From contig CBDATS010000004.1 in NCBI GenBank assembly GCA_965200245.1, forward strand, positions 1,216,001-1,280,000: DNA of 64,000 bases, written 5' to 3'. Of the stretch, positions 2,745-49,311 are shown piece by piece. Source of the stretch: a bacterium. Its GTDB lineage: Bacteria; UBA8248. The first letter of the stretch is position 1, and each line of letters opens with the position of its first letter. The notes under the pieces were generated by a model. It made no database searches and was not told the DNA's origin. It saw only the letters and a list, made by a program, of their open reading frames with translations. The position numbers and the translations under genes were made by a program.

Positions 2745-3644
2745 TCAATTTTCGTCCGGTTTCATGGGCAAGTGCTCCGCATACACTTCCGCCGCTTGCT
2801 GCGGCGTCAAGGATTTGTCTCTTTTCTCCAGAGTTTGCTCTGCCAAAGGCGTCGTCGCGAGGTGGGAATAGATGGCCACTGCTCCTTCATGAAACTTTGG
2901 GGTAACACCGGCGGCTTCGAAGGTCTGCGCAATTTGTTTCATCTCGTCGATATACCGCCATGCCACGACGGGAAGACGAGGTGCGCTTGATGCCATCTGT
3001 CTATAATAAGCTTCCTGGCTCGTTTGAAACTCGTGGCTAACCTCTTCGGCGAGACCAAGCGCCTCTGACAGGGTGATAACAGCGGTTTGAAGGGCATGTG
3101 ACCCCTTGGTAAGAGCAGCGTAGCACATCTTGATCCCCGAAGCGCGGCCAACCTCACTCCCAAGCAAACGGACCACAATTCCCTTGCCATCCAACTCCGC
3201 CAGCAATTCCGCCTGTTCACCGCTGAAGTAAAACCTCGTTTTGTTCCGGGCCTCGCTCGGTGGAGGACCCAATATTCCTCCATCAATGAAATCGGATCCG
3301 GCATCTGAAATTCTTCTGGCGATGACTTTCGCCGTTTCAGGCGACACTGCGTTGCAGTCGGCGTAAGGAGGACAACATCCGGTAGCCGACATGCATTCCG
3401 CTACTTCGTCCGCCACCTGCACGGCTGAACCCGGAGGCACTATGGACAGAACCATGTCAGAGCGTTCCAGCATCACGGCCAAATTCGGATAGTCCCTGAT
3501 CCCCCCTTTATCGGCCAAGCGCTTCGTCTGTTCGCTTCTATTCGTGAGGCAAGTCACCACCTCAATGCCATGCAAGCCCAGCATTCGCCCCACGGCGTGC
3601 CCCATATCTCCCGGGCTCAGGATAGCGACAGTTTCAAGGGCCAT
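2745..3644 (-). CDS. NAD(P)-dependent oxidoreductase, 6-phosphogluconate/3-hydroxyisobutyrate dehydrogenase-like (DUF1932 C-terminus)
   Basis: ILSPGDMG, YADCNAVSP, DGGILGPPP, ASGIKMCYAALTKG, AWRYIDEM. Confidence 0.85.
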   Translation of the reverse strand: MALETVAILSPGDMGHAVGRMLGLHGIEVVTCLTNRSEQTKRLADKGGIRDYPNLAVMLERSDMVLSIVPPGSAVQVADEVAECMSATGCCPPYADCNAVSPETAKVIARRISDAGSDFIDGGILGPPPSEARNKTRFYFSGEQAELLAELDGKGIVVRLLGSEVGRASGIKMCYAALTKGSHALQTAVITLSEALGLAEEVSHEFQTSQEAYYRQMASSAPRLPVVAWRYIDEMKQIAQTFEAAGVTPKFHEGAVAIYSHLATTPLAEQTLEKRDKSLTPQQAAEVYAEHLPMKPDEN

Positions 3645-10108: not shown

Positions 10109-10140
10109 CAAAAAGCCTGCCCCTTGAGGGACAGGCTTGA
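10109..10140 (-). terminator. Intrinsic terminator-like hairpin after crotonase 1
   Basis: Minus strand AAGCCTGTCCC-TCAA-GGGGCAGGCTT followed by a T-run. Confidence 0.6.
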
Positions 10141-10164: not shown

Positions 10165-10947
10165 CTATTCTCCGGTAAACACAGGTTTCCTCTTTTCCCT
10201 GAACGCAGCCAGCGCCTCAGCGAAATCCCTGGTGTAGTTCAAAGGCAACCTGTGGGCGTTGGAAAACTCGATGGCCTGAGCGAGCGGCATATCGAGTGTT
10301 TGATCGAGCACTTTTTTCGCTCCACGAACTCCAAGGGGACCATTATCCCTTATCTTCTCCGCTATGGCGGTTGCTTCATCCATCAGCGTATCCAGCGGAT
10401 GCGCCTTGTTCACCAAACCGATGCGCTCGGCCTCTTTTCCATCGATACGTTTACTTGTGAAAACCAACTCTTTCGCCTGTCCGGCCGGCATGATTCTTTG
10501 AAGCCAGACTACGCCGCCAGCTCCTGGAAAGATACCCAGACTGCATTCCGGAAAACAAAGGGTTGCTCCTTCCGCGGCCAGCCTGATATCGCACACCAGG
10601 GTAATTTCCACGCCCCAACCGAACGCATGACCGTTGACAGCGGCGATGGTGGGCATGGGCAAGCGTTCCCACAACGAGGTTGCAGCCATCACGTTGCGTT
10701 GGTAACGATCGGCCATCTCTTTCGTATGCGCAGTGCTTTCCTTCAGGTCGCGGCCCGTACTGAAACCACGTCCCTCTCCAGTGAGAATGACAACACGCAC
10801 ATCCTGCGCGTCAGCCAGGGTTTGCGTCAATTCCACGAATTCTTCTGCCATCTTGAAACTGATTGCGTTCAAACTTTCCGGACGGTCGAACTTCACCACC
10901 GCCAATCCATCTTCCTCCGTATAGGACATCGTCTCAAATTCGTGCAC
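10165..10947 (-). CDS. Enoyl-CoA hydratase/isomerase (crotonase) family, paralog 1
   Basis: DRPESLNA, FSTGRDL, AVNGHAFGWGVE, FPECSLG, EKRKPVFTGE. Confidence 0.9.
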   Translation of the reverse strand: MHEFETMSYTEEDGLAVVKFDRPESLNAISFKMAEEFVELTQTLADAQDVRVVILTGEGRGFSTGRDLKESTAHTKEMADRYQRNVMAATSLWERLPMPTIAAVNGHAFGWGVEITLVCDIRLAAEGATLCFPECSLGIFPGAGGVVWLQRIMPAGQAKELVFTSKRIDGKEAERIGLVNKAHPLDTLMDEATAIAEKIRDNGPLGVRGAKKVLDQTLDMPLAQAIEFSNAHRLPLNYTRDFAEALAAFREKRKPVFTGE

Positions 10948-10986: not shown

Positions 10987-11517
10987 TCAACCTTTCAAAT
11001 GGCTGGCCACTTCCTCAACAAACTTGAGTGTCGTTTCTCTCATTTCATCGGGCTGCAAGTTGCTCACCGGATGAGGTAACTGCACATACGGGTGACCTTC
11101 CATTCCCTTTCCACGAAACTGAAAGTCAGCAGCGTTTTTGAACGCCTCGGTAATAATGGTCGTTGCCGGGATACCCCGTTTCTCAAATTCAACCGTGTCG
11201 TGCACACTGCACAACGTGCAGGAACCTCAGCCACCCAAGGCGGCTATCGCCAAATCAATCTCCTGGGCCATATCCTCGATCATTTCATCGGTGGCGGGTT
11301 TGGAATAATGCTCCTTCCGCCGCGAGATGACTCTGGCCACGTCGTATTGTTCACGCAGGGCATTTCCCAGAGTTTCCAAAATGATGTCCGCTTGCTCTTT
11401 CGTGTTGTCCAAGAGCCCTACTACTTTCCCTGAAAGGTCTTCGGGGCGTTGTGCAAGCTCGATTCGTGCAACCGACCCACCCGCTGTCGGATCGATGAAT
11501 CCCATTCCGTTCGCCAT
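10987..11517 (-). CDS. UGSC-family selenoprotein, 176 aa, Sec at codon 97 (UGA 11227-11229)
   Basis: ORFs 11227..11529 and 10987..11214 are in one frame separated by a single TGA: AALGG-U-GSCTLCSVHDTVEFEKRGIP; GGAG RBS before ATG 11517. Confidence 0.9.
11197..11215 (-). promoter_or_regulatory. Candidate SECIS hairpin of UGSC gene 1
   Basis: GTTGTGCA-GTG-TGCACGAC, 8-bp stem starting 11 nt after the UGA. Confidence 0.75.
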
Positions 11518-11717
11518 GGTTTTCTCCATTAGAATTATGTGAATTCAATCGCGTTCGCATCATATCCCGCAATTTAGTCCCTGTCTACGATATCAATGCC
11601 CCTTCAGCCATGGCTCGAAAACACGAATGAAGTTTTTCCCTCTTCTCAGTTTCGCCGAATTTTGACAAAATCAAGCCTACTTCACTCAACTCCTCCAATC
11701 TTTAAGGAGCAAAACAA

Positions 11718-13988
11718 ATGGCCGGTTACGATATCATCGGCAAGTCAAACGTCCGATATGATGCAATCCCGAAAGCGGATGGTTCCATGCCCTATGGAGA
11801 GGACACGATACCCGCAGGCGCCTTGCAATGTGGCGTATTGTTTACGCCCATCCCGGCAGGCCGCTTGAAAAAACTCGACACGTCGAAAGCCGAAAAAATC
11901 CCGGGTGTAGCCGCCATCTTGACCGCAAAGGATATTCCGGGGACTAACACGCGGTTCGGCTCGGGCACGCCGGGCCTCCCGCACCAGCCGGTATTGGTGG
12001 AAGACAAAATCGAATTTACGGGCGATGCCCTCGCAATCGTAGGCGCCGAAAACAGAGAAACGCTTGACGCTGCCATTGCGGCTATTGAGGTGGAAATCGA
12101 GGCGGAAGAAGGCGTGTGGACAACGCGTCACGATGAGTCGAGTGCCGAGAAGCGCCAGGCATGTGACTTCGAGGTCACCCGCGGTGACATCAATACCGCG
12201 TTCGATGAAGCCGACGTAGTAATTGAAAAAACATACACCACTCAGCTTGCCGAGCACGCTTTTCTGGAACCTGCTTCCGGTACTTCCTGGATGGAGGAAG
12301 ACGGCATCATCACCATCCGCGTCGGGACTCAACTCATCGAATACTATCGCGCCATAGCCGCTATTTTGGGAATCTCACAGAGCCGTGTTCGCCACCTCGG
12401 CACTTATGTTGGTGGCGGATTCGGTGCCAAGGGCATGCTGACCGTGGAACCCTACCTCGCATTGCTCACCTGGCATACGCAAAGGCCTGCCGTCATGGTG
12501 CTTGGTCGTGAGCACGGCATCAGAAACACTTCCAAAAAGCATCCCTTCTACATGAAGTACAAAACAGGAGCTACCAGGGACGGGAAACTCCTGGCCGTAC
12601 AAGCGGATATCGTGGGCGACGCAGGCGCTTATCCCTATAAATCCAATTTATTCCTCTTGGGTGCCATGTGCATCGCCGCCGGACCTTACGATGTCCCCAA
12701 CGTAACAATTCGAGCGCACGGCTATCTCACCAACAATCCCATCACCAACGCGATGCGCGGTGTTGGCTCGAACCAGGTCTGCTTTGCTTACGAAAACCAG
12801 ATGAACCTGGTGGCGGACACCATCGGTATTGACAAATACGAATTCAGACGGAGAAATTTCATCCAGAAAGGTCAGGAACTGCCTACAGGGCAGAAAATTC
12901 CCTACGAACCAAACCTGGAAGAATGCCTGGACAGCGCGCTAGAGGCCTTGGGTGCTCCGACAGAACCAGGTCCGGGAAAACGTATCGGACGTGCGGCGGC
13001 GGCGAACATCACCGGCTATGGAAGGCCACATGACGATGCGAATGCAGCGGTTCACCTTGAGCCTGACGGCAGCGCCGTGGTCCGCGTGAGCGCACCGGAC
13101 ATAGGCGCAGGTCAGGGGGCTACGCTTCAAAGCATCACGGCCGAAACCCTGGGGCTCAGGCTCGACCAGGTTTCCACCCGCTTATCCGATTCCGCCACGA
13201 CACCACTCTCGGGCATCACTGCGGGTTCCCGCCAAACGCTTATGGCAGGACACGCCGTTCGCCTTGCTGCAGATGAAGTACGAAAAGCCGTTACCAAAGG
13301 CGCCGCTTCATTGCTCGAGGCAGCGGAAGAGGATATTCGCGTCGGCGGTGGCGAGGCGTGGGTAGCCTCCGCTCCCGAGAGAAGGATTGGCATAGGTGCT
13401 GCAGCTGGAGAAGCCAAGAAAATGGGAGAATCGCTACACTGTACACACGGCTACAACATGCCGGGCCATCAGTATGAGAATCCAGAGCGATACATGAACG
13501 GCATGGGCGGATGGTCGGACTACACATTTGGTGTTCACGCGAGTGAAGTGGAAGTCGACATCGAAACCGGCGAAGTAAATCTATTGAAACACATAGCTTC
13601 GCATGATGTCGGGCGAGCGCTGAACCCTCAAAGCGTGGAGGGGCAATTCGAGGGCGGCGCAGTGATGGGGATTGGCTACGCACTCCACGAGGAAATTACG
13701 ATGGTGGAAGGCGATTGTCGCTCGCAAAGCTTTCATGAATATCTGATCCCTACCTCATCGGACATCGGCGAGGTCGAATCCGTCGTTCTCGAGTGCGGTG
13801 AGGGCGCGGGACCTTACGGTGCGCGCGGCGTCGGAGAACCGCCATGCAACAATGCGCCGGCCGCCGTCGCCCTCGCCATCAATGACGCAATAGGCACTGA
13901 AGTCTACGACCTGCCCATCACGCCCGAGCGCGTCTGCTGGGCGGTCATGAAGAAAAACGGCAAAAGCAACGGTCATCAGGAACCATAA
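11718..13988 (+). CDS. Xanthine dehydrogenase-family molybdopterin-binding subunit
   Basis: GGGFGAKG, AMRGVG, TAGSRQT, HDVGRALNP, GVGEPP. Confidence 0.9.
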   Translation: MAGYDIIGKSNVRYDAIPKADGSMPYGEDTIPAGALQCGVLFTPIPAGRLKKLDTSKAEKIPGVAAILTAKDIPGTNTRFGSGTPGLPHQPVLVEDKIEFTGDALAIVGAENRETLDAAIAAIEVEIEAEEGVWTTRHDESSAEKRQACDFEVTRGDINTAFDEADVVIEKTYTTQLAEHAFLEPASGTSWMEEDGIITIRVGTQLIEYYRAIAAILGISQSRVRHLGTYVGGGFGAKGMLTVEPYLALLTWHTQRPAVMVLGREHGIRNTSKKHPFYMKYKTGATRDGKLLAVQADIVGDAGAYPYKSNLFLLGAMCIAAGPYDVPNVTIRAHGYLTNNPITNAMRGVGSNQVCFAYENQMNLVADTIGIDKYEFRRRNFIQKGQELPTGQKIPYEPNLEECLDSALEALGAPTEPGPGKRIGRAAAANITGYGRPHDDANAAVHLEPDGSAVVRVSAPDIGAGQGATLQSITAETLGLRLDQVSTRLSDSATTPLSGITAGSRQTLMAGHAVRLAADEVRKAVTKGAASLLEAAEEDIRVGGGEAWVASAPERRIGIGAAAGEAKKMGESLHCTHGYNMPGHQYENPERYMNGMGGWSDYTFGVHASEVEVDIETGEVNLLKHIASHDVGRALNPQSVEGQFEGGAVMGIGYALHEEITMVEGDCRSQSFHEYLIPTSSDIGEVESVVLECGEGAGPYGARGVGEPPCNNAPAAVALAINDAIGTEVYDLPITPERVCWAVMKKNGKSNGHQEP

Positions 13989-13992
13989 ACAA

Positions 13993-14026
13993 GAAACAGC
14001 CCCGGCATCTTCGCCGGGGCTGTTTC
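13993..14026. terminator. Bidirectional terminator between convergent genes
   Basis: Perfect 14-bp stem GAAACAGCCCCGGC-ATCTTC-GCCGGGGCTGTTTC. Confidence 0.75.
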
Positions 14027-14156: not shown

Positions 14157-15179
14157 CTACACACTGAATTTTTTGGTCACGGCCCGACATGCTACGGTGA
14201 TTCCATGCATGACCATGCTTGATGGCGATCCTTTGCTTCCCGCGACGATCAGGTGAAGATCTTCGGGATCCCCTACTGCAGGCACGAAGAAATCATCATC
14301 ATGTATATCCACGGGAAACGGCCAGCGATCCGCGCCTTTCTCGCCTCTCCAGATCCCGCCCCGCTTGATATCTCGGATAGTACGACCACCCATTTCCAGC
14401 AATTTTCGGTGTACATCGCTGCGGGCCAAGCCTGCACCGGCGCACAGATGCGCATGTTGCGCGCCCAGGACAACCGCCATGTCAGCTTGCCGATACATAT
14501 TGGGTCCGCCCAGAGCGGACATCATATCGGCAACCGTCGCAAGAAGTCGGTCGGGGGTCAGGCTCGCATCGTCCCATACCTGTACGGGGCCTTCGAGAGG
14601 AATCATGGTCACAACATTGTCGCTTTTGTGAAATCCCTTCGATTCTGCATACGACTCCCAGGGCGATTCCTCCTCGTACTCCATAATGCAAAAGGTGTTT
14701 CGCCAAGGACCCCCAAAACCGCCCAGACAGGTGACTCCGGGGATGCCTCCACCCACATTCATCATGACGAGCCTCACGGCGCGGCCGATGGTCAAGTTTG
14801 CGCGAAAACCAGGACCCATGCAGCCCACGCCGCCGTGCAAACCGATTTCCCTGGCGTAGGGACCATTCACCAACAGAAAAGGCGCACCCGCACTCGTCGT
14901 GGCCTGGATGAGATTTACGTTGAAACGCTCATCAAGAAGCGCCTCCAGACCCGCTATCAAGACCGGCATGTATTCAGGTTTACAACCAGCCATCACGGCA
15001 TGTGCCGCCACGCCCTGGATGCTGAGTTCCCCGCCCGCCGGAGCCACATGACCGAGCACTTCGCCAGGCTCCCTTGCCGTCCCAGAGAGCATCGATGCGA
15101 TCCTGCCTTCCGTCGGTGTCACGACAGGCAAGCCGTCTGACCATTCTTTTTCAAAGAAAAACTCGAACTCATCCATCAA
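14157..15179 (-). CDS. Uncharacterised 'DGLP' family protein (UGSC partner), tandem copy 4
   Basis: WSDGLPVVTPT, AVMAGCKPEY, GCMGPGFRANLTIGRA, LIVAG. Confidence 0.85.
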   Translation of the reverse strand: MMDEFEFFFEKEWSDGLPVVTPTEGRIASMLSGTAREPGEVLGHVAPAGGELSIQGVAAHAVMAGCKPEYMPVLIAGLEALLDERFNVNLIQATTSAGAPFLLVNGPYAREIGLHGGVGCMGPGFRANLTIGRAVRLVMMNVGGGIPGVTCLGGFGGPWRNTFCIMEYEEESPWESYAESKGFHKSDNVVTMIPLEGPVQVWDDASLTPDRLLATVADMMSALGGPNMYRQADMAVVLGAQHAHLCAGAGLARSDVHRKLLEMGGRTIRDIKRGGIWRGEKGADRWPFPVDIHDDDFFVPAVGDPEDLHLIVAGSKGSPSSMVMHGITVACRAVTKKFSV

Positions 15180-15516: not shown

Positions 15517-16533
15517 CTATGGTCGATAAGCAGCCGAAACCGCTTCGCTGCCATCCACCCAGCCAGGCATGACGGCCGTCACCGGTCCGGGCGTACCCCC
15601 TGCGACGATCAAAACCAGATCGTCTTCATTTTTGACCGCCGGGACCATGAATGAATCATCTTGCCGCCCCGCGTCAGGCGGCCATTTTGCTATCATTTCC
15701 TCACGCCAATAGCCCGATTTTTTCAGCTCCCCGAGAGGCTTGCACGCAAGCTCCATGATTTGGTGATGGACATCTTCCTTGCTCAAGCCCGCCGCCGCGC
15801 ACATGCGCGCATGATCCGGACCCAATGCGACGACAACCTGTGTTCTCAGCCAAATATTCAGCGACCCCAACGTGGATATCTTGTCCGCCAGCCCGACGAA
15901 AAATGATTCCGGCTCCCTGGAATAATCATCGATATACCCTTGAGGCGCTTCTGCCATCACGGCGGTCACAACATCATCATCTGGATGAAACCCTCTCGTA
16001 ACGGACAATGGCTCCCAGGGGTTTTCCGCTTCATTCTCGGCGACACAAAACGTATATCTGGCAGGTGAACCGAATGTGCTCATGGAGGCGGAAATCGGCA
16101 CACCGCCGCCGATGTTCATAAGAATGAGCCGGATGGCACGACCAATCGTCGCATTCGCCCGAAAACCCGGGCCAAAGCATCCCGTGCCGCCATGCAGGCC
16201 AATTTTTTTCGCGTACGGCCCATTCATGATCAGTAAAGGTGCCGCGCTGTGCATGGTGCCCTGCACACCGTTCAAATTGAGTTTCGGCTCAAGCAGCGTC
16301 TGGAGGCCGGCAATCACAACGGGCAAAAACGAAGGCTCGCACCCCGCCATGACGGCATGCGCGGCAATCGCTTGAACACTGGCCTCCCCCATGAGGGGTG
16401 GCACCAAGCCGATGACTTCCGAAGCCCCAGGTTTTGCGCACGAAAGCATGGCGGACATTCGTTCCTGGGTAGGAGGAACAATCGGCAGGCCATCCGACCA
16501 TTCTTTTTGAAAGAAAAACTCGAATTCATCCAT
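15517..16533 (-). CDS. Uncharacterised 'DGLP' family protein (UGSC partner), tandem copy 3
   Basis: WSDGLPIVPPT, AVMAGCEP, GCFGPGFRANATIGRA. Confidence 0.85.
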   Translation of the reverse strand: MDEFEFFFQKEWSDGLPIVPPTQERMSAMLSCAKPGASEVIGLVPPLMGEASVQAIAAHAVMAGCEPSFLPVVIAGLQTLLEPKLNLNGVQGTMHSAAPLLIMNGPYAKKIGLHGGTGCFGPGFRANATIGRAIRLILMNIGGGVPISASMSTFGSPARYTFCVAENEAENPWEPLSVTRGFHPDDDVVTAVMAEAPQGYIDDYSREPESFFVGLADKISTLGSLNIWLRTQVVVALGPDHARMCAAAGLSKEDVHHQIMELACKPLGELKKSGYWREEMIAKWPPDAGRQDDSFMVPAVKNEDDLVLIVAGGTPGPVTAVMPGWVDGSEAVSAAYRP

Positions 16534-16574: not shown

Positions 16575-17603
16575 TCAAACTTCATAGACCCCATGTACGG
16601 CGCGGCTCCCGCCGCTCCACCCATGACAGACCGCACTGCCCGATCCCCACCCGCCTGCGACGATCAGGTGAAGGTCGCGGGAATCCTTGATGACGGGGAC
16701 GAAAAAATCCTCATCATCCGGATCTACGTGGATATACATATCCAGAGCACGCTCGCGTCGCCAGTTGCCGCCTTGTTTCAGATCCTTCACCTTATGGCCG
16801 GCCAATTCACACAGACGCCGATGCACGTCAGCGCGCGCCAGGCCACCCTCGGAACAAATCTTTGCATGCTGAGGATTCATGGCGACAACCATATCGGTTC
16901 TTGGCGCGTGCATGTTCCAGGAACCCAAACCCGTCATCGCATCGGCGATGCCGCGGAGCAGCCTCTCGGGCTCCTCGCTTACATCATCAAAGGTCAATCG
17001 CGGGCTTTCCACCATCGCCATGGTAATCACGTTCTCGTCCTTTCCATACCCTCTGGATTCAGCGAGCGTCTCCCACGGGTGAAATGGAAGGTTCTCCGTG
17101 ATGCAGGCCGTATAGCGCAGCGGCGTGGCGAAAATCGTCATGGAGGAAACACCCGGAATGCCCCCGCCCAGGTTCATCAAAATCAGGCGAATGGCGCGCC
17201 CTATGGAAGCGTTGGCCCTGAATCCGGGGCCAAAGCAACCGTTGCCCCCATGAATGCCGATTTCTTCGGAATAGGGCCCGTTCACGATCATGAGTGGCGC
17301 TACGCCGTGCATCGTGCCCTGCACGCCATTCATGTTGAATTCTTCACGGAGCATGAGGGAAGTGGCACCGAGAACAACCGGCAGATATTCGGGCTTGCAA
17401 CCCGCCATTACCGCATGAACCGCCACGCTGTGAACCGTGGCCTCACTCATGGCGGGGGGAACGTGGCCTATCAGTTCATCAGAATTTCTCTTTGTACCGG
17501 CAAGCATGCGCTCAATGCGCTCCCCGGTCGGAGTGACGACCGGAAGGCCGTCCGACCAGGGTTTTTCAAGAAAAAACTCGAATTCATCTTGAGGTTCGTT
17601 CAA
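16575..17603 (-). CDS. Uncharacterised 'DGLP' family protein (UGSC partner), tandem copy 2
   Basis: WSDGLPVVTPT, AVMAGCKPEY, GCFGPGFRANASIGRA. Confidence 0.85.
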   Translation of the reverse strand: MNEPQDEFEFFLEKPWSDGLPVVTPTGERIERMLAGTKRNSDELIGHVPPAMSEATVHSVAVHAVMAGCKPEYLPVVLGATSLMLREEFNMNGVQGTMHGVAPLMIVNGPYSEEIGIHGGNGCFGPGFRANASIGRAIRLILMNLGGGIPGVSSMTIFATPLRYTACITENLPFHPWETLAESRGYGKDENVITMAMVESPRLTFDDVSEEPERLLRGIADAMTGLGSWNMHAPRTDMVVAMNPQHAKICSEGGLARADVHRRLCELAGHKVKDLKQGGNWRRERALDMYIHVDPDDEDFFVPVIKDSRDLHLIVAGGWGSGSAVCHGWSGGSRAVHGVYEV

Positions 17604-17634: not shown

Positions 17635-18666
17635 TCAAGATTCGAATGCGCGCGATACGGAACGGCTGCTCCCGTTCCATCCGTGCATCACGGCCGTAAT
17701 CGGGCCTGGAACACCACCTGCCACGATCAAGATTAGTCTTTGGGCCTCTTTTATCGTCGGAACGAACACTTCGTCATCGTTCAAATCGACAGGAATCGGA
17801 AAACTCTTGACGCGATTTTCCCTGAAATGCCCTCCCGTTTTGAGTTCGCCCACCGTGCGGCCCGCAATTTCGCAAAGGCGTCCGTGGACATCCGCCCTTG
17901 AATACCCCCTCTTTGCGCAAATCGCGGCCTGTTGCGGGCTCATCGCCACCACCAGATCGGTATTGGCCCAACAGTTCCACGAACCCAGGTGCGACATGGT
18001 GTCCGCTATGGAAGGCAACATGCGCTCGGGGTCGTCGCTCACATCATCCCAGGACATGACGGGGCCCTCTACGTGCACGGCGGTTACTACATTCTCCCCG
18101 GCTTCGAAACCCTTCGACTGCGCAAGAGACTCCCAGGGACTCTCCTCCTCGTTCTCTGCGATGCAATACGTGAACCTGCCCGGCTGTGAGAACGTACTCA
18201 TCGAAGTGATGCCCGGTATTCCGCCGCCAATGTTGAGAAGCAAAAGCCTGATGGCCCGGCCGATTGTCGCGTTGGCGCGATTCCCGGGACCGAAACAGCC
18301 GAGTCCGCCGTGTAGCCCGACTTCCCTGGCATAAGGGCCGTTCACGATCAAGAGAGGGGCTGCGCATGAGAGAGTCGCCTGAACGCCACCCACGTTGAAT
18401 TTTTCTTCTAAAACAGCCTCCATCGCCGCGATGAGAACTGGCATATATTCCGGTTTGCATCCGGCCATGACGGCGTGAACGGCTATGGTCCGAACGTCCG
18501 CCTGCCCCAGAAGCGGGGGTATGTCACCGATGATTTCGTCCGGACCGCGGTTCGTCCCCGCTAACATGAGGCCCACACGCTCTTCGGTGGGGGGGATGAC
18601 CGGCAGACCATCCGACCAGGCCATTTCGAAGAAATATTCGAACTCATCCACAGGAGGGGTACTCAC
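17635..18666 (-). CDS. Uncharacterised 'DGLP' family protein (UGSC partner), tandem copy 1
   Basis: WSDGLPVIPPT, AVMAGCKPEY, GCFGPGNRANATIGRA; GGAGG RBS before GTG 18666. Confidence 0.85.
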   Translation of the reverse strand: MSTPPVDEFEYFFEMAWSDGLPVIPPTEERVGLMLAGTNRGPDEIIGDIPPLLGQADVRTIAVHAVMAGCKPEYMPVLIAAMEAVLEEKFNVGGVQATLSCAAPLLIVNGPYAREVGLHGGLGCFGPGNRANATIGRAIRLLLLNIGGGIPGITSMSTFSQPGRFTYCIAENEEESPWESLAQSKGFEAGENVVTAVHVEGPVMSWDDVSDDPERMLPSIADTMSHLGSWNCWANTDLVVAMSPQQAAICAKRGYSRADVHGRLCEIAGRTVGELKTGGHFRENRVKSFPIPVDLNDDEVFVPTIKEAQRLILIVAGGVPGPITAVMHGWNGSSRSVSRAFES

Positions 18667-18821
18667 GAAAGCCTCCGAAACGAATTGTTGGAGCAAAGGA
18701 CACGTTTACCGCCAATCATGCGGAAAATATACACGGGCACTGGACAGATTGCGAGTCCATGTCGTTAGAATGCCACCGCGTCCCGATCCACGATCATCAC
18801 CTCACATACAGGAGCACCTTG

Positions 18822-29485: not shown

Positions 29486-30520
29486 CTAATCCTGTACAGG
29501 CTTCGTGACCGCCCGCGTCTCACCGTAGGTAGGGAAAAAAAGCGTGTGGCTCCCCGGTCCACCCGCCACGGTGAGGAGAATGCTTTTTGGGCTATCCGCA
29601 ATCGGAACGGCCTCGGGCTCTGAATCGGTGAAGAGTCCCGGCCGCTTGCCCCGAACGCGCTCGGCTATCTCCGGAGAAAAGCTCGCGAGCGAAACCCGAG
29701 CAAGTTCAAAGAGCGCACACTGCACGTCCTTTCGGTCCATGCCGCCCGCTTCGAGGAGACTTTTATGCTGGGGGCTAAGGACGACCAGCACTTCGCCACC
29801 GCCTTGGGCGTTGTTCGAGCCGGGATAGGCCATTGAGCCTGCGATCATGTGCAGCACACTCTCCGCGCTCCCGCTCGCGTAATCGTTCACGTTCACAGGC
29901 GCGTCCGCACCCACCACCGTCACGGCATCTTGATCCGCGCGGAACCCCCGCGCCATATGGAGCGGCTCCCAGCCGCATTCCGCCTCGGCGAAACAGGCGG
30001 AGAACTTCCCTCCGTGGCCGAAAGTGGCCATATCTGTCTCACCGGGAGTCGCCTGCCCCAGCCGCACGGCGACCAGGCGGACGGCGCGCCCGATCGTAGC
30101 GTTCGCCCGAAAGCCCGGCCCAAGGCATCCGCTACCCGAATGTACGTCAAGCCGTTCGGCAAGAGGCCCGTGGACGACAACCAAGGGCGAGGCGAGTTCG
30201 GTGGTCGCCTGAATGGCCAGGAAATTGAATTCGGGCTCCATCACGGCTTCGAGCGCCGCCAGAACCACCGGGAAGTACACAGGTTTGCACCCTGCGGCCA
30301 CCGCGCAGACGGCGGCATCCCCCACAGTCAACTCTTGCATGCCGGGCGGCATGATTCCCAGAACGTGGCCGGGACCCTCCTGCACCGAGGCGAGCATGGC
30401 GTCGATCGCCCGGCGTGTAGGCGGGACGAGGGGGAGTCCGTCACCCGGTCCGTTCTCAAGTGCGGCTTCGAGCGCCGCCTCGGCGCTCGGCGAAATTTCA
30501 CTCAGAAGTGCCCCGGACAT
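29486..30520 (-). CDS. Uncharacterised 'DGLP' family protein (UGSC partner), copy 5
   Basis: GDGLPLVPPT, AVAAGCKP, GCLGPGFRANATIGRA, VAGGPG. Confidence 0.85.
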   Translation of the reverse strand: MSGALLSEISPSAEAALEAALENGPGDGLPLVPPTRRAIDAMLASVQEGPGHVLGIMPPGMQELTVGDAAVCAVAAGCKPVYFPVVLAALEAVMEPEFNFLAIQATTELASPLVVVHGPLAERLDVHSGSGCLGPGFRANATIGRAVRLVAVRLGQATPGETDMATFGHGGKFSACFAEAECGWEPLHMARGFRADQDAVTVVGADAPVNVNDYASGSAESVLHMIAGSMAYPGSNNAQGGGEVLVVLSPQHKSLLEAGGMDRKDVQCALFELARVSLASFSPEIAERVRGKRPGLFTDSEPEAVPIADSPKSILLTVAGGPGSHTLFFPTYGETRAVTKPVQD

Positions 30521-30523
30521 AAC

Positions 30524-32131
30524 CTAGTCGATCTTCCGCGTCACAGAGCGGTGGTTCAGTGCGCCCGGCGCAAGGAGCGAGTTCGGTCCCGCGCCGCCAT
30601 GCACCACGATGGTGATGTCGCTTCGGTCCTCGACGATGGGAAGTGTCGCATTCTCCATCGTATTCACTCCGTAGAGCATCTGCTTCCAGTCGCTCCACCG
30701 TTCGCGCGATTCGGGGGGATAGGCGTGGACGGGAATACGGTAGACTTCACAGAGGAAATCGCGCACGAGCTTTTTGTCGAACCCCGCCTCTGCGACCTTG
30801 TTCGCGTGGGTGGGGCCGAATATAAGCATGATCTCGCAGCGGCCGAACTGCGGTCGAGTGCCGGAGCAAGCGGCCACCGTTCCGAAAGTCCCAAGGATGC
30901 CCTGCGCGGTGAGCGCGCTGTGATCATCTACCATGTGGAGGGGTTCTGCAGTGAACACCGTCACGACACTATCCGTTTCAGCGAAGCCCTTCTCCACATG
31001 GAGCGGCTCCCAGGGGCTCTGTTCGACGTTCTCGGTAATGGCGTCGAAATACTTGGCGAAATGGCCCTGGCAAGTAGCACCCCTGTTTTCGAGGTCGCCG
31101 ATGCAGTTGAACATGATGAACTTGACCGCGCGGCCGATGGAGGCGTTCACTCCCCATCTCTTCTCGCTCAGGTCGCGTCCGTCGCTCATCCCGATCTCTT
31201 GTGCGATGGGGCCGTTCACCACGACGATGGGGAACAGCGTGTGCGCCGTGGTGATGACATGGTTGACGTGATATTCCTCAGCCCCCATGGCTTGCACCGC
31301 TGTCACGAGGATAGGCATGACGCCCGGCTTGCATCCCGCCATGACGGCGTTGGCTGCGATTCGTTCGACAGTGATGTCCGCCATTCTAGGCATGAGGCGG
31401 GCGATGACTTCATCTCCCCTCCGGCCCGAGGCCGCCACAAACCGCTCCACCATCTCCACAGTGGGAGGTATGACGGGCAGCCCGTCGGTCACGCCTAGAT
31501 CGAAGAGCGCTCCGTTGGTGCCAATGGGGTCTGCCTCTATCGAAAGAACTCGCTCGATGGGGTCTTCCGCTGCTGCGGCTTCTCCCCCGTTCGCTGAGTT
31601 CATCCACTCGGAGGCCACAGAATCCACGCCGTTTCGCGCAATGTGCGTCAGAGCGTCGCCGCCTTGGTGGGCCACGGTGTCGTCCACCAGGAGAAGGCGC
31701 AGATTTGGGGATTTATAGGCACGGGCGAAGCTGCGCGCCGCCGTCTCGAAACCGTTTCCCACCACTACGACGGTGGGAACACCGCGTTTTTCGAGTTCCG
31801 CCGAGTCGTGGACACTCCACGACGTGCAACCCCCTCAGACTCCGAAGCCGGTTACCGCCACATCGCAGTTCGAGGCGATCTCGTCGAGCATCTCCTGCCC
31901 GGCACCCTGAGCGGCCCAGCCCTTCTTTCGCACGAAGAGTTCGGCGCCGTGCCGTTCCGCAAAGACCTCCCCGACATGGTTCAGGAATTCACCCGCGTGG
32001 GGCATGTTGTTGTCGAGCAGAGCGATGCGCAGCCCTTTGAGGCCCTTCACGGAGGCGCCTGCGATCGGAGCGTCCTCGACCGCCACGGCGGCGATGGGAT
32101 TGATGATTTCGATTCGAGCGTTCTCGCCCAT
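30524..32131 (-). CDS. UGSC-type selenoprotein domain (UGGC) fused to a 'DGLP' domain, 535 aa, Sec at codon 99 (UGA 31835-31837)
   Basis: ORFs 31835..32233 and 30524..31765 are in frame, joined by GFGV-U-GGCTSWSVHDSAELEKRGVPTVVVV; AGGAG RBS before ATG 32131. Confidence 0.88.
31805..31823 (-). promoter_or_regulatory. Candidate SECIS hairpin of the UGSC fusion gene
   Basis: GTCGTGGA-GTG-TCCACGAC, perfect 8-bp stem 11 nt after the UGA. Confidence 0.8.
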
Positions 32132-43832: not shown

Positions 43833-44864
43833 TCACGTTTCACCTTCACGATCGATCAGTCCACTCAGGAGGGCCGAGCGAGTGAGGACACCGACTACCG
43901 CACCCGTCTCGTCCACCACACGCAGTGGAGATTCGCTCTCCATGGACAAGTGCAGCGCGTCCTGCAGCGCAGCGTCGTGCAAGATGGTCGGGCCGGTCGC
44001 CGCCTCGTCGTCGGGGGGCCGCATGACGTCGCTCGTCTTCAGTATGCGTTCGCGTTTCACTTCGCGCACGAACTCGCGTACATAGTCAGTGGCCGGACGG
44101 AGCAGAATCTCGTTCGGCCTGCCTGTCTGGTCGATCGCGCCGTCTTTCAGGATGGCGACGTGATCGCCCAGATGAAGTGCCTCGTCCAGATCGTGGGTGA
44201 TGAATACGATAGTCTTCTTGAGGTCCCGCTGGAGCGCGATGAGGTGTTCCTGCATCTGTTTGCGGATGAGCGGATCCAGCGCGCTGAAGGGCTCGTCCAT
44301 GAGCAGAATTTCGGAGTTCGTGCACAGGGCGCGCGCCAGCCCCACCCGTTGCTGCATGCCGCCAGAAAGCTGGGCAGGGTAGGCGCTCTCGTAGCCGATC
44401 AGGCCCACATCCTCTATCCACGCCATCGCGCGACGGCGGCGTTCGGCCGGCTCCACTCCCTGGACTTCCAGGCCGTAGCCCACATTCTCGATAACCATCA
44501 TCTGCGGGAATAGCGCGTAGCGCTGAAACACCATGCTCACGGCACTCCTGCGGAAAGCGAGCAATTCCTCGGGCGAGAGTGCGAGAACATCGCGCCCGTC
44601 AACGAGAATCCGGCCCGCCGTTGGATCAATGAGCCGGTTGATGTGGCGTATAAGAGTCGATTTACCCGAACCCGAAAGACCCATAACCACGAATATCTCT
44701 CCCCGCTCGACGGAGAGACTCACGTCCTTCAAGCCCAGTGTGCAACCGGTTTCGAGCAGCACCTTGTTCTTCTCGACTCCCGCACGGGCCAGGTCGAGCG
44801 CGGTGTCCAGCGCGCCCCCGGCTCCGAATATCTTGTAGACGTTTTTTATCTCGATGAGCGCCAC
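43833..44864 (-). CDS. proV: Glycine betaine/proline ABC transporter ATP-binding subunit
   Basis: MGLSGSGKS, LSGGMQQRVGLARA, DEPFSALDPLIR, CBS-like tail. Confidence 0.9.
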   Translation of the reverse strand: MALIEIKNVYKIFGAGGALDTALDLARAGVEKNKVLLETGCTLGLKDVSLSVERGEIFVVMGLSGSGKSTLIRHINRLIDPTAGRILVDGRDVLALSPEELLAFRRSAVSMVFQRYALFPQMMVIENVGYGLEVQGVEPAERRRRAMAWIEDVGLIGYESAYPAQLSGGMQQRVGLARALCTNSEILLMDEPFSALDPLIRKQMQEHLIALQRDLKKTIVFITHDLDEALHLGDHVAILKDGAIDQTGRPNEILLRPATDYVREFVREVKRERILKTSDVMRPPDDEAATGPTILHDAALQDALHLSMESESPLRVVDETGAVVGVLTRSALLSGLIDREGET

Positions 44865-44868
44865 CGCT

Positions 44869-45777
44869 TCAGCTCCTCCCGCCCGTGCGGATAAAGCGCC
44901 CGCCGTAGGCCTGGGTGACACGGTCCATGACGATAGCGAGCAGAACAATCGCCACCCCGGCCTCGAGCGCCCGCCCCACGTTGAGTTGCTGGAGGCCGAT
45001 GAGCACCTCGGTACCGAGGCCTCGGGTTCCGATCATCGAGGCAATGACGACCATCGCGAGCGCCATCATTGTGGTCTGGTTGACACCCTGCATGATGCTA
45101 GGCAGCGCCATCGGTATCTGTACGCGAAGGAGTTTCTGTCTTCGGCTCGCACCCATGGCGTCGGAAGCCTCGATGATTTCCTCATCCACCAAGCGGATGC
45201 CCAGGTCCGTCAGGCGGATCACCGGCGGGATGGCGTAGATCACCGTCGCGAAGACGGCAGGCACCGCGCCGAGCCCAAAGAGCATGATCGCCGGAATGAG
45301 GTAGACGAAGCTTGGCATCGTCTGCATCAGATCCAGCGCCGGCAGCACCATGTCGCGTATCCGGTCGTTCCGCGATATCGTGATACCGACCGGAACGCCT
45401 AAGCCGATGCAGATGACGGTGGAGACGAACATCACCGAAAGCGTCATCATCGACAGATCCCAGAGCCTGGGATCGATGATGCCGATAAAAAACAGGCTGG
45501 CGACTACGATCGCGGTCAAGCCCCATTTGCGCCCGCCAGAAAAGAAGGTGAGCGCACCTACGCCCAAGAAGATGACGAGCCAGGGAAGGTCTCGCAAAAA
45601 GCGCTCAAGGCCGACAAGCAGAACGAGAATGGCGTCTGAGGCCGTCTCGAAGATGATTCCGTAATCCGAGACCAGCCATTCCACGAAATCGTTGGTCCAC
45701 TTGTTGAGCGGCAGGTTCAGCCCCTTGGGCCACTCGACCGCCCATTCGGGGAACAGTCCGCGGAAAAACTTCATCAC
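44869..45777 (-). CDS. proW: Glycine betaine/proline ABC transporter permease
   Basis: LDLMQTMPSFVYLIP, GVNQTTMMALAMVVIASMIG. Confidence 0.9.
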   Translation of the reverse strand: MMKFFRGLFPEWAVEWPKGLNLPLNKWTNDFVEWLVSDYGIIFETASDAILVLLVGLERFLRDLPWLVIFLGVGALTFFSGGRKWGLTAIVVASLFFIGIIDPRLWDLSMMTLSVMFVSTVICIGLGVPVGITISRNDRIRDMVLPALDLMQTMPSFVYLIPAIMLFGLGAVPAVFATVIYAIPPVIRLTDLGIRLVDEEIIEASDAMGASRRQKLLRVQIPMALPSIMQGVNQTTMMALAMVVIASMIGTRGLGTEVLIGLQQLNVGRALEAGVAIVLLAIVMDRVTQAYGGRFIRTGGRS

Positions 45778-45840
45778 GTACGGGCCTCCCCGAAATTATG
45801 GAGCAACATCACGAGAGAAAATATCCCACCCGAGCGCAGC

Positions 45841-46878
45841 TTAAGCCGATTCGAGCGCCTTCTCGACCTTTTTTGCCACGCTGGCCGGAACCCACTTCTT
45901 CCAGACCTTGTTGGTCTTCAGGAAATGGACGGCGGTGACTTTGGCGTCGCCGCCAGCTTCCTTTTCAAGATAGGCCAGAGCCTTCGACACCACGTTTGAG
46001 GGGAGCGTGTACTTCTCGACAAAGGCGACAATCTCAGGATGTTTCGCCGCGAATTTCGACGTGACCGACTTCGGCAATTCCATCGTCCGGTAGGCGGTCG
46101 CCTTCTTGGGATTCCCCATGGCACCGACTCCGCCTTTCTTAAGCGCCTCCACGTGCTTGAGCATCTCGTTCCAGTCAGCCTCGTTCCAGACAGGCTCTTC
46201 GAGTTGCACGAGATCGAGCTGTCCCAGCAACGGCGTCGGTGCCCAGTAATAGGCGAGCACCGGCTTTTTCTTGAGATACGCGCCCTTGATGGCCGCCGCA
46301 AGCGCACCGCCTGAACCGGGCCGGAAATTGGTGAAGTGCTTCTCCAGTCCATAGACCCGCAGCTTCACTGTGTTGATAACTTCGCAAGACCAGCCGGGGA
46401 TGCAGTTCACGAAACGGCCCTTGGAGGGTTCTTCGGGATCCTTGAAGAGATGCTTGTACTTGGGCAGGTCGTACACCGACTTCAGGCCCGGGTTCGCCTT
46501 CTGCACGAAGCGCGGTATGTACCAGCCCTGCGCGCTGTCGGGCGTGTTGACACTCAGCATCTTCACATTGCCGCTCTTGTGCGCTTTGTCGTACTGCTCC
46601 TGCACGTTGTCGTACCAAAGCTCCATGATCAGGTCGTTCTTCCCCTCGTAGTGGGCCGTCATGATCGGAAGCGTGCCGCCGTAGATGAGCCGCACCCGGC
46701 AGCCGTAGCCATGCTCCAGGATAAAGGCGACCACTTGATCGTGAAAGTTGGCACTGTCCCAGTTCAGGTCGCCGATACGGACCCGGCAGGAGGCGTCCGC
46801 CCGGCTCGGCAAGGATGCGAGCGCCGTCGCCCCGATGGCAATAGCCAAAACGAACACAAGAAAGATTCTGGATTTCAT
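45841..46878 (-). CDS. proX: Glycine betaine ABC transporter substrate-binding protein
   Basis: Signal peptide, NWDSA, HGYGC, CIPGWSC, YYWAPT. Confidence 0.85.
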   Translation of the reverse strand: MKSRIFLVFVLAIAIGATALASLPSRADASCRVRIGDLNWDSANFHDQVVAFILEHGYGCRVRLIYGGTLPIMTAHYEGKNDLIMELWYDNVQEQYDKAHKSGNVKMLSVNTPDSAQGWYIPRFVQKANPGLKSVYDLPKYKHLFKDPEEPSKGRFVNCIPGWSCEVINTVKLRVYGLEKHFTNFRPGSGGALAAAIKGAYLKKKPVLAYYWAPTPLLGQLDLVQLEEPVWNEADWNEMLKHVEALKKGGVGAMGNPKKATAYRTMELPKSVTSKFAAKHPEIVAFVEKYTLPSNVVSKALAYLEKEAGGDAKVTAVHFLKTNKVWKKWVPASVAKKVEKALESA

Positions 46879-47208: not shown

Positions 47209-48525
47209 ATGCCCGAGACGAGATACGATCCCCATCGCGGCGAATGGACGCTCATCGCACCACAGAGACGCACGCGTCCACATCCGGCACATTATACGAA
47301 CGCCTCGCCCTCCAATGAAGATCCATCCTGTCCCTTTTGTCCGGGCAACGAGCACATCACGCCAACAGAAGTCGCCGCCTCGAGGGACAAGGGCGAGGAC
47401 AACGCACCCGGCTGGCGCGCACGTTGCGTGGCGAACAAATACCCCGCCATTGACGGTGGAAAAGCCGAACACGGCGGAGAGGGTGAATTTATTTTCCATA
47501 AAGGCGGTGGATGCCATGAGGTGCTTATCGATTCGTCCCGTCACACGAAGGCCCTCGCCGATCTCGGCGAAGCACACACTGCAGAAGTTCTGGGCCTTCT
47601 GCAGGAAAGGGCACGCGCGCTCATCGAGGCGCCCGGCGTTCGCTTCGTCTTCGCCTTCAAGAACCACGGCGCCATGGGGGGCGCATCCATCCTCCACTCG
47701 CATTTCCAGATACTCGGGCTTCCGTTCGCAACGGGCAGTGTCGAGAATATGCTCGAAAATGAGGTCTCCTTTTATGCAGAACGGAAATGCGCGCTTCTGG
47801 ACCACTTGATAGATGCGGAGCGCGCACAGAAGGTGCGGCTGGTGGAGGCGGGAGCAGAGGGCGCCGTCGTTTATTGTCCATGGGCGTCTCGTTTTCCCTT
47901 TCTCGTCCTTATCGCTCCATGGCCAACGGAAGTCTCCTTCGCCGGGAGCGCGCCTGAAGCCATCGCAGCCGTCGGATCTGCCCTTGCGCGGTGCCTGAGG
48001 CGCTACAAGACGCTTCTCGGCGATCCACCCGTCAACATCTCCTTTCTCGCTGCGGGCGGGATGGAGGGAAACCTCAAGTCGCATCGCTGGCATATCGAAC
48101 TTTTCCCGCGTCTGACGCCCCTGGCCAGCCTTGAGACGGGCTTGGGCGCGCACATCAACGAAGTGGTTCCAGAGCGCGCCGCCGAAATACTGAGAAAGAT
48201 CGACCCCTGTGAATGCGCATCTTCTTCTCCCGGTATCGACAGAGGATCCACCGATGAGCAAGAAAAATACCCCAAAAACTGTATCCTTTCTCACGGGCGG
48301 CGACATCGCGCCAGACAGGGCTTCGGCCAAGGGGATGTTCGGCCGCTTGGGGAAATTTTTCCGAGGCGCCGATTTTTCCTTCGCGAATCTCGAGAACGCG
48401 CTCTCGACGCGCGGCGAACTCATGAAGGGGAAACCGACCAAACACAGGGGACATCCCTCGCTCGTTGCGGGACTGGTGGACGCGGGCTTCGACGCGGTGG
48501 GGATCGCAAACAACCATGCGCTTGA
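47209..48525 (+). CDS. galT: Galactose-1-phosphate uridylyltransferase family; homologous part ends near 48210 and the ORF reads on over the next gene
   Basis: CPFCPGNE, NKYPA, HEV, FKNHGAMGGASILHSHFQ, WHIELFPRL, PERAAEILR. Confidence 0.8.
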   Translation: MPETRYDPHRGEWTLIAPQRRTRPHPAHYTNASPSNEDPSCPFCPGNEHITPTEVAASRDKGEDNAPGWRARCVANKYPAIDGGKAEHGGEGEFIFHKGGGCHEVLIDSSRHTKALADLGEAHTAEVLGLLQERARALIEAPGVRFVFAFKNHGAMGGASILHSHFQILGLPFATGSVENMLENEVSFYAERKCALLDHLIDAERAQKVRLVEAGAEGAVVYCPWASRFPFLVLIAPWPTEVSFAGSAPEAIAAVGSALARCLRRYKTLLGDPPVNISFLAAGGMEGNLKSHRWHIELFPRLTPLASLETGLGAHINEVVPERAAEILRKIDPCECASSSPGIDRGSTDEQEKYPKNCILSHGRRHRARQGFGQGDVRPLGEIFPRRRFFLRESRERALDARRTHEGETDQTQGTSLARCGTGGRGLRRGGDRKQPCA

Positions 48526-49311
48526 CTTCGGGGTTCCTTCCCTGGAGGAAACCATGCTGACGCTGCGACGCGCAGGTGCTCCCTTCACGGGTGCGGGAAT
48601 GGACCTGAGTGAAGCACGCGCACCCGTCGTGCTCGAACGCGGAGCGGGTTCACAATCGGCCTTCTCGCCTACTCGTCCGTGCTGCCGCAGGGCCACGCGG
48701 CAGGCCCCGGGGAGCCCGGCGTGAACCCGCTCCGCGTCAGGACATCCTATACGCCACCCAGAAACCTTGATGAATACCCCGCCTCCGAACCCGTCATCTA
48801 CTCCTGGGCCAGAGCGGAAGACCTCGCACGCATGAAAAAAGAGGTCCGAAGCCTCAAGCGTCGTGCCGATTTCGTCTTCGCCTACCAGCGCTGGGGGGCG
48901 AGCATGCGCCACGAGGTGCACGAACATCAAAGGGAAATCGGCCAGGCGGCGATCGACGCGGGTGCCTGCGCCGTATTCGGCGGACACCAGCACGTGCTCT
49001 CGGCCATCGAGTTCTACAGGGGCCGGCCAATTGTCCATTGCACGGGGAACCTGATATTTGATGAGATTGAACCTTTCTTCACTGACGCGACACTCCAGAC
49101 GTTTCTGCTGGGAGGGCGACTGGACGAGAACGGACTGGACGATTTGCACCTGATACCCTGTCGCTGCGGCGTCGGCGGCGCCCCGAGGCTTCTCTCGCCG
49201 ATGAGCGGTGAGGGTCGCGCGATCGTGGATATGGTAAAAAACCTATCCGCACCTTACGGGACGGAGATCGCCGTCAAGGATGGAGAGGTGGTCGTCTCAC
49301 CGCTCAGCTAA
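48254..49311 (+). pseudogene. CapA/poly-gamma-glutamate synthesis-type metallophosphoesterase, frameshifted near 48641
   Basis: GDI, NLE, ANNHALDFG; after the shift GLLAYSS, QRWG (usually HWG), GGHQHV, GNLIFD. Confidence 0.75.

Follow-up and report, generated by a model that had tools for sequence, protein, structure and literature searches.

A UGSC family selenoprotein gene with an in-frame UGA and its probable DGLP partner proteins in a 64-kb bacterial DNA window

UGSC proteins are described, in the passages that the literature devotes to them, as predicted and uncharacterised selenoproteins (PMC2398784, PMC13188914, PMC1976440, PMC5029168, PMC9402790, PMC13326102). According to the pertinent part of an ocean survey they are among its most abundant selenoproteins, with 255 sequences (PMC2398784), and a figure given in PMC9402790 assigns them 8.2% of selenoprotein genes. 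A thioredoxin-like fold was supposed for UGSC in the former paper, whose Fig S1A also contains a domain named “Unknown_1” (Zhang & Gladyshev 2008, PMC2398784). This domain is the one that we refer to as DGLP, a label of the preliminary description and not a name in print, and the fusion of UGSC with DGLP is thus already in print. The passages on UGSC in this literature state no relationship to GrdB, no stand-alone operon with Unknown_1 and no link to thioredoxin reductase.

Judged by its sequence, the product of positions 10987–11517 is a new member of this known selenoprotein family, whose function is unstudied. The joined protein reaches 149.5 bits against the NCBIfam model NF041046 (“UGSC family (seleno)protein”, cut-off 125), its two halves taken separately score 53.3 and 66.6 bits, below this cut-off, and residues 8–175 match Pfam PF24696 (‘UGSC-containing protein’) with 175.6 bits against a cut-off of 25. 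Since the family has already been named in both collections, the protein itself is little new. The gene is ordinary for its family, and what our analysis adds is a probable partner, a likely electron donor, remote links to GrdB and a fold that looks Rossmann-like.

The window, by which we mean the whole 64-kb stretch of DNA that was analysed, carries dnaA, recF and gyrB and therefore looks chromosomal. Translation of the minus strand with table 11 yields two ORFs at the UGSC gene (11227–11529 and 10987–11214), and gene callers routinely annotate it in this way. If the TGA at 11229–11227 is read as selenocysteine, a single protein of 176 aa runs from the ATG at 11517 and contains GG-U97-GSCTLC-SVH. 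The joining of two ORFs through one TGA had been proposed in the preliminary description, and its length and coordinates proved right on the minus strand, with the joined protein passing NF041046. The sigma70-like site upstream of the gene is by itself no proof of a promoter, since the scan saw three such sites where 6.8 were expected. Coordinates of the gene, its local signals and its neighbours are collected in Table 1.

Table 1. Features of the UGSC gene and of its surroundings in the window.
Feature	Position	Strand	Basis or remark
UGSC family selenoprotein CDS	10987..11517	-	176 aa, U97-G-S-C100-T-L-C103; NF041046, PF24696
In-frame TGA, inferred Sec97	11227..11229	-	TGA conserved; Cys in distant homologues
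SECIS-like hairpin, 8-bp stem, GUG loop	11197..11215	-	begins 11 nt past UGA; folds and conservation
Ribosome-binding site GGAG	11524..11527	-	6 nt upstream of ATG 11517, from sequence
Sigma70-like site TAGACA-17-TATGAT	11559..11587	-	consensus match only
Crotonase 1 (enoyl-CoA hydratase family)	10165..10947	-	39 nt downstream of UGSC, own RBS; probably co-transcribed
11-bp hairpin, short U-tract, terminator-like	10113..10138	-	z -5.13, 0/200 shuffles
Xanthine-dehydrogenase-family molybdopterin (Moco) subunit	11718..13988	+	divergent, between UGSC and DGLP cluster
15-bp terminator-like hairpin ending DGLP cluster	13993..14026	-	terminator consensus scan
DGLP paralogue D1, candidate partner subunit	14157..15179	-	no Pfam or NCBIfam match
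DGLP paralogue D2	15517..16533	-	
DGLP paralogue D3, best candidate partner	16575..17603	-	clade abutting UGSC in Betaproteobacteria, Chloroflexota
DGLP paralogue D4, start uncertain	17635..18696	-	
Stand-alone DGLP gene D5	29486..30520	-	directly behind UGSC-DGLP fusion
Second UGSC system: UGGC-type Sec domain fused to DGLP domain	30524..32131	-	TGA 31837-31835, like hairpin

Some further genes of the window were recorded in passing. The Moco large subunit gene has no FAD or Fe-S subunit genes adjoining it and has a 200-bp divergent region in common with UGSC. A DUF1932/6-phosphogluconate-dehydrogenase-like gene (2745–3644, minus strand) lies 7 kb from UGSC, and in Natrinema caseinilyticum a DUF1932-type gene (L089:9462–10334) is found two genes behind DGLP. 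The DNA methylase gene (PF01555; 32599–34046, plus strand) in a lower-GC stretch appears to be split over two overlapping ORFs, as does the PGA_cap gene (48209–49311, plus strand), and a glycine-betaine-type ABC transporter (OpuAC; 43833–46878, minus strand) is located 32 kb from UGSC.

Our comparison of loci links UGSC to DGLP, a family that no Pfam or NCBIfam model matched. A GTDB scan yielded 159 relatives of UGSC, of which the analysis covers the best 80; these loci are related by descent. The closest of the best 80, at 86–94% identity, stem from MAGs labelled Nitrospinota, Nitrospinaceae or ‘bacterium’. DGLP genes are present in 75 of the best 80, and 78 of them have one UGSC domain only in the HMM scan. 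The Moco subunit gene occurs in 25 of the best 80 loci, here called the Moco clade, of which 21 have DGLP; the four without it include only 1.8–4.7 kb of upstream sequence. Among the other 55 of the best 80, DGLP is found in 54 and lies directly adjacent to UGSC in 49 (43 upstream, 7 downstream, one of these both), and 21 of the 55 have two DGLP genes. The same pairing was seen in ten plasmid loci, which were selected for taxonomic spread from 21 matches and include archaea: DGLP is adjacent or fused to UGSC in all ten, and in two haloarchaeal plasmid loci it flanks a single UGSC on both sides. Since relatives of UGSC are nearly always found beside DGLP, UGSC and DGLP are probably parts of a single redox enzyme, and on the strength of gene order DGLP is very probably the partner of UGSC and would bind it. 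The earlier suggestion that UGSC is a selenocysteine subunit for DGLP proteins thus holds for the pairing, and for the sharing of one subunit among several it is plausible.

How many DGLP proteins the one UGSC serves in this genome is a separate matter. The four paralogues D1–D4, with 49–54% identity to D1, are located 2.64–7.18 kb from UGSC, in line with the 2.6–7 kb first estimated. They had been said to have no UGSC of their own, and indeed a six-frame HMM scan found just two UGSC domains in the window, that of the 11517 gene and one at 32119–31592, so that none belongs to D1–D4. D3 groups with the UGSC-adjacent DGLP of Betaproteobacteria and Chloroflexota (63 rows, SH-aLRT 100). This grouping alone was used from the DGLP tree, a quick version with SH-aLRT support only, from which L002–L013 and proteins above 450 aa were left out and in which D5 and the fusion have long branches. 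Furthermore, a D1-like gene abuts UGSC in locus L077, and loci L032 and L039 have only D4-group DGLP within the fetched DNA. We are inclined to think, with moderate confidence, that one UGSC serves more than one DGLP paralogue here, probably D3 together with one or more of D1, D2 and D4 in this lineage. Against sharing, D1, D2 and D4 could be served by further UGSC genes in other parts of the genome. Against the pairing at this locus, UGSC and the DGLP cluster seem to be transcribed separately, with the divergent Moco gene between them, and they probably are, since the hairpin at 14026–13993 closes the DGLP cluster. The arrangement of one UGSC and four DGLP genes offers a direct test of subunit sharing.

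A second UGSC system of the window was absent from the preliminary description. Its UGSC domain (32119–31592) belongs to a protein of 535 aa, has the motif UGGCTSW with Trp for the third Cys and scores 96 bits against NF041046, below the cut-off. Downstream of this fusion and D5 follow an FAD oxidoreductase gene (PF12831) and a sugar-type ABC transporter. Several systems can also lie close together elsewhere, as in L079, where three TGA-type UGSC systems occur within 15 kb, one of them fused to DGLP. A search aimed at longer fusions gave no match, which says little, as fusions are already known from this window and from the representatives.

A likely source of electrons is suggested by the more distant loci. 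A thioredoxin-reductase-like gene accompanies the UGSC–DGLP pair in four of the ten plasmid loci, in one together with trxA, and representative P0235 is a fusion of UGSC with thioredoxin reductase. The genes that recur around UGSC in the 80 close loci include no thioredoxin reductase, and none was found in the window. We consider it fairly probable that the system carries out reductive thiol/selenol chemistry fed by thioredoxin.

Several of these loci merit separate mention. UGSC is fused to or beside thioredoxin reductase in P0235, L083, L085, L086 and L087. The order is trxB-trxA-DGLP-UGSC, with a NifU-like tail on UGSC, in Arthrobacter, and DGLP-UGSC-trxB, with UGSC in its Cys form, in Roseovarius. 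The Neorhizobium locus (L087:6950–9536) has the atypical motif HCSTC, and both the DGLP part and the thioredoxin reductase seem to be divided between two frames. In Paracoccus (L084:6977–8634 and 11949–13724) the annotation breaks UGSC at the TGA into two hypothetical proteins, with selB 4.4 kb away and genes for DsrE, TusA and a cysteine desulfurase nearby. Phosphosulfolactate synthase genes lie near UGSC/DGLP in two of the ten plasmid loci, one from an archaeon and one from an actinobacterium (L082, L085), and DUF6282 genes lie near three haloarchaeal UGSC copies (L082, L089, L090).

Taken as a whole, the model towards which we lean slightly is a two-component, thioredoxin-fed UGSC/DGLP selenoenzyme. 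SelB would bind the hairpin past the UGA, leading to insertion of Sec97. UGSC would act as the small catalytic subunit and the DGLP protein of about 340 aa as the larger subunit of an oxidoreductase, the genomic link between them being observed and their binding predicted. By analogy with GrdB/PrdB, and with the mechanism of PrdB as set out in part of PMC11229817, the selenolate of Sec97 at the start of helix 98–113 would attack a substrate held by DGLP. Cys100 could then resolve the adduct to give a selenenyl-sulfide, which thioredoxin and thioredoxin reductase might reduce again at the expense of NADPH. The neighbours of distant loci, which include TRAP/TTT transporters, CoA transferases, lyases, phosphosulfolactate synthase and PEP-mutase-family genes, hint that small organic acids or acids containing sulfur are broken down. 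They suggest, weakly, that the most likely substrate would be a small organic acid or an organosulfur compound, imported for use in a catabolic route. Among the 55 loci outside the Moco clade (of the best 80 of 159), SDR and ketopantoate-reductase-like genes are the next commonest neighbours, in 16 loci each. As the neighbours differ between lineages, no substrate can be named.

The catabolic surroundings would also suit an alternative that we judge unlikely, namely that UGSC and DGLP together act as a hydro-lyase or isomerase in the breakdown of organic acids, dependent on a metal or on Fe-S, with Sec97 and Cys100 as ligands or activators instead of a redox pair that cycles. Class I (Fe-S) fumarate hydratases are the top Foldseek rows for the D3 model (pLDDT 93.9) with E 2.3e-3 to 1.5e-2, none reaching 0.001; three cysteines (Cys 69, 123 and 167) are kept in all of D1–D5, and UGSC bears NifU-like tails in P0203, P0236 and L085. 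However, D3 and fumarate hydratase differ by an rmsd of 15–19 A with a TM-score below 0.3, the VIA Z of 3.7–4.3 is in the chance range, and Cys123 and Cys167 vary in divergent DGLP members, which leaves the similarity as a lead only. The best Z of any match in the D3 fold search was 5.2, a result that speaks neither against any family nor for a new fold. For D3 every cluster returned by the Atlas search is unnamed, and P0123 gave no usable result. The linkage to thioredoxin reductase, moreover, points towards redox cycling. Sequence searches against solved structures gave nothing significant for UGSC alone, the UGSC profile or the DGLP profile; the match of the DGLP profile to thioredoxin reductase (E 0.036) may stem from the fusion P0235, one of its 89 rows.

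Redox chemistry of a broader kind is the view of the literature, in which UGSC would act on thiols or peroxides in general, as an oxidoreductase with a role like that of thioredoxin. DGLP would then be either a target of UGSC or a redox protein regulated together with it. UGSC resembles thioredoxin-like and peroxiredoxin-like UxxC selenoproteins in its U/CxxC motif at the start of a helix and in its thioredoxin-system neighbours, including thioredoxin reductase. It appears to differ from thioredoxin-fold selenoproteins in that the AlphaFold model (pLDDT 96.9) has five strands alternating with helices in an alpha/beta/alpha arrangement, with the UGSC motif after the third strand and U97 at its end, where helix 98–113 starts. 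The best matches of the fold search are generic Rossmann- or flavodoxin-like domains with Z about 10 and rmsd 2.5–3.4, such as 7te2, with Z 10.3 and an rmsd of 2.5 across 111 residues, and the predicted fold thus looks Rossmann-like. No thioredoxin-fold and no Grd/Prd chain was among the matches listed, a result that excludes no family and establishes no new fold. That UGSC has one almost obligatory partner and lies in catabolic neighbourhoods also suits a dedicated enzyme better, and we regard the role of a general oxidoreductase as quite unlikely.

An acyl-CoA pathway in which UGSC acts with crotonase 1, the DGLP cluster being incidental, is very unlikely. The two genes are 39 nt apart and have a terminator-like hairpin in common, CoA-related genes lie near some haloarchaeal UGSC copies, and crotonase directly follows UGSC in 23 of the 25 Moco-clade loci (best 80 of 159), but it does so in none of the other 55, 54 of which have DGLP. 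Crotonase is thereby rejected as a conserved partner, and the unit of UGSC and crotonase that had been described is real in this genome yet specific to its lineage. The terminator placed after the crotonase at about 10110–10140 is borne out as a hairpin at 10138–10113, which the consensus terminator scan missed because of its short U-tract. It is kept in L001, L002, L005 and L010 and, among the 12 loci shown, not as such in more distant ones. Within the two-component model, crotonase 1 may handle a downstream product.

Translation of the UGA as Sec97 we hold to be virtually certain from the pattern of conservation. TGA is followed by GSCTLC in all of the best 80 of 159 GTDB loci, and in 76 of these exactly 79 residues follow the TGA before the stop. 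The end codon at this usual position is TGA in 42, TAA in 19 and TAG in 15 of the 76 loci, which indicates that TGA remains a normal stop in these genomes and rules out a genome-wide reassignment of TGA. Among the 120 protein matches listed of 1188, 119 stop exactly before the Sec codon and the remaining one has Cys there. Homologues with Cys at the TGA codon, for which the preliminary description had called, are numerous: of the 123 distant homologues that span both halves among 150 representatives listed, 118 have Cys at position 97, 112 keep Cys100 and just 29 keep Cys103. The residues of codons +1 to +3 (G, S, C) are invariant in the best 80 loci and their synonymous variation amounts to 0.51, 0.26 and 0.18, which argues that read-through is required and against two separate proteins. 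That the TGA is a true stop, in a pseudogene, through a sequencing error or between two small proteins (96 aa and a 75-aa ORF from TTG 11214), is extremely improbable: gene callers do see two ORFs, and TTG 11214 is kept in 79 of the best 80 of 159 loci with GAGG 10 nt upstream, but all 80 share the TGA, G-S-C-T is kept between TGA and TTG with synonymous variation at G, S and C, one locus has TTA for TTG with a compensating stem change, the real end codon varies freely, and both halves make up a single confident domain in the AlphaFold model.

Bacterial SECIS elements are described, in the relevant parts of PMC1976440 and bioRxiv 2022.07.06.499078, as stem-loops that closely follow the UGA and have a G in the loop. 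UGSC has such a conserved 8-bp stem, none of whose pairs is broken in any of the 57 distinct sequences, and two double changes occur. The seven codons that underlie the hairpin (+4 to +10) are synonymously frozen, with values of 0–0.013 against 0.10–0.69 for 53 other codons of the related loci, and this conservation is as expected of a putative SECIS element. The folding energy of the 60 nt past the UGA is no better than that of shuffled sequences (z 0.28), and the SECIS call thus rests on conservation. Three TGA forms that are only distantly related (window 31837, L081 and L084) have a matching hairpin past the UGA. As the codon of Cys103 lies inside the hairpin stem, the invariance of this residue in the subfamily may partly reflect an RNA constraint. 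The 64-kb window contains no sel gene among the ORFs scanned and neither a tRNA nor any Rfam match, and no tRNA-Sec was found in the 60 of the best 80 loci that were scanned. Table 2 of PMC13326102 lists 54 selenoprotein genes for the UBA8248 genome of locus L017, whose UGSC is 79% identical with the same gene order, and places it among the ten genomes richest in selenoproteins.

Profile comparisons connect UGSC to the glycine and proline reductase subunits GrdB and PrdB. The GrdB profile TIGR01917 is matched at E<=0.1 by 45 of the 113 aligned UGSC members (best E 2.6e-5), and the GrdF, GrdH, PrdB and TIGR01918 profiles are matched by 14–23 of the 113 each. In a control alignment (A4) of 89 DGLP rows, 5 of the 11 rows that carry UGSC match the GrdB profile and none of the other 78. 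The matches fall in the C-terminal part of the profiles (about 304–414 in GrdB, about 126–187 in PrdB). The single matches are weak, as for this UGSC, which gives E 0.011 with GrdH and 0.091 with GrdF, but they suggest that UGSC is probably a remote homologue of the Sec domain of GrdB/PrdB. UGSC is not a GrdB proper: it scores 16.8 bits against the TIGR01917 cut-off of 602.2, the GRDB domain PF07355 is matched by none of the 113 members at E<=0.1, and no PF09338 partner was found. Specifically, none of the 89 DGLP rows matches this GrdE/PrdA pyruvoyl proprotein family at E<=1, and neither PF09338 proteins nor grd/prd genes are among the window ORFs scanned. Without a PF09338 match in DGLP, nothing visible here corresponds to the pyruvoyl step of Grd/Prd. 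The likeness to GrdB first noted thus survives as probable remote homology, far below family membership; the UxxCxxC spacing on which it was based is present here and in all of the best 80 of 159 loci, and is missing from the many distant homologues without Cys103.

As a tentative possibility, UGSC/DGLP could be an unrecognised third branch beside GrdB and PrdB, in which a minimal Sec domain docks on exchangeable, pyruvoyl-free DGLP subunits that bind the substrate, in carbon-heteroatom cleavage driven by NADPH and thioredoxin reductase. Were this true, its substrates would be imported organic acids or organosulfur compounds outside the Stickland fermenters, one Sec subunit for four specificity subunits would represent selenium economy in this genome, and a function would be found for a selenoprotein family that ranks among the most abundant in the environment. 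Independently of such a branch, a near-obligate partner, a likely electron donor and a remote tie to GrdB/PrdB bring the function of an abundant orphan family within reach of a test. Cultured, non-pathogenic hosts with compact Cys-form operons, such as Arthrobacter and Roseovarius, permit study of the enzyme.

Overall, UGSC has in common with GrdB, GrdF and GrdH (TIGR01917, TIGR01918) and PrdB (TIGR04483) the weak C-terminal profile matches and the UxxCxxC spacing. It differs from GrdB in size, with 176 aa against a profile of 431 positions, and from GrdB/PrdB in its hosts, which include Proteobacteria, Actinobacteria and haloarchaea and among them, we presume, aerobic organisms. With PrdB/PrdA, as described in part of PMC11229817, it shares the organisation of a small Sec subunit with a larger partner. 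Compared with the UGSC family as far as it is treated in PMC1976440 and PMC2398784, the protein has the same U-G-S-C motif, Sec/Cys pairs and stand-alone as well as fused forms, and it passes both family cut-offs. The subfamily here differs in having GG-U-GSCTLC with TGA in all of the best 80 of 159 loci, while distant Cys forms mostly have GD-C-GSC. Moreover, one UGSC gene here faces four DGLP paralogues across the Moco gene, whereas elsewhere it abuts one or two.
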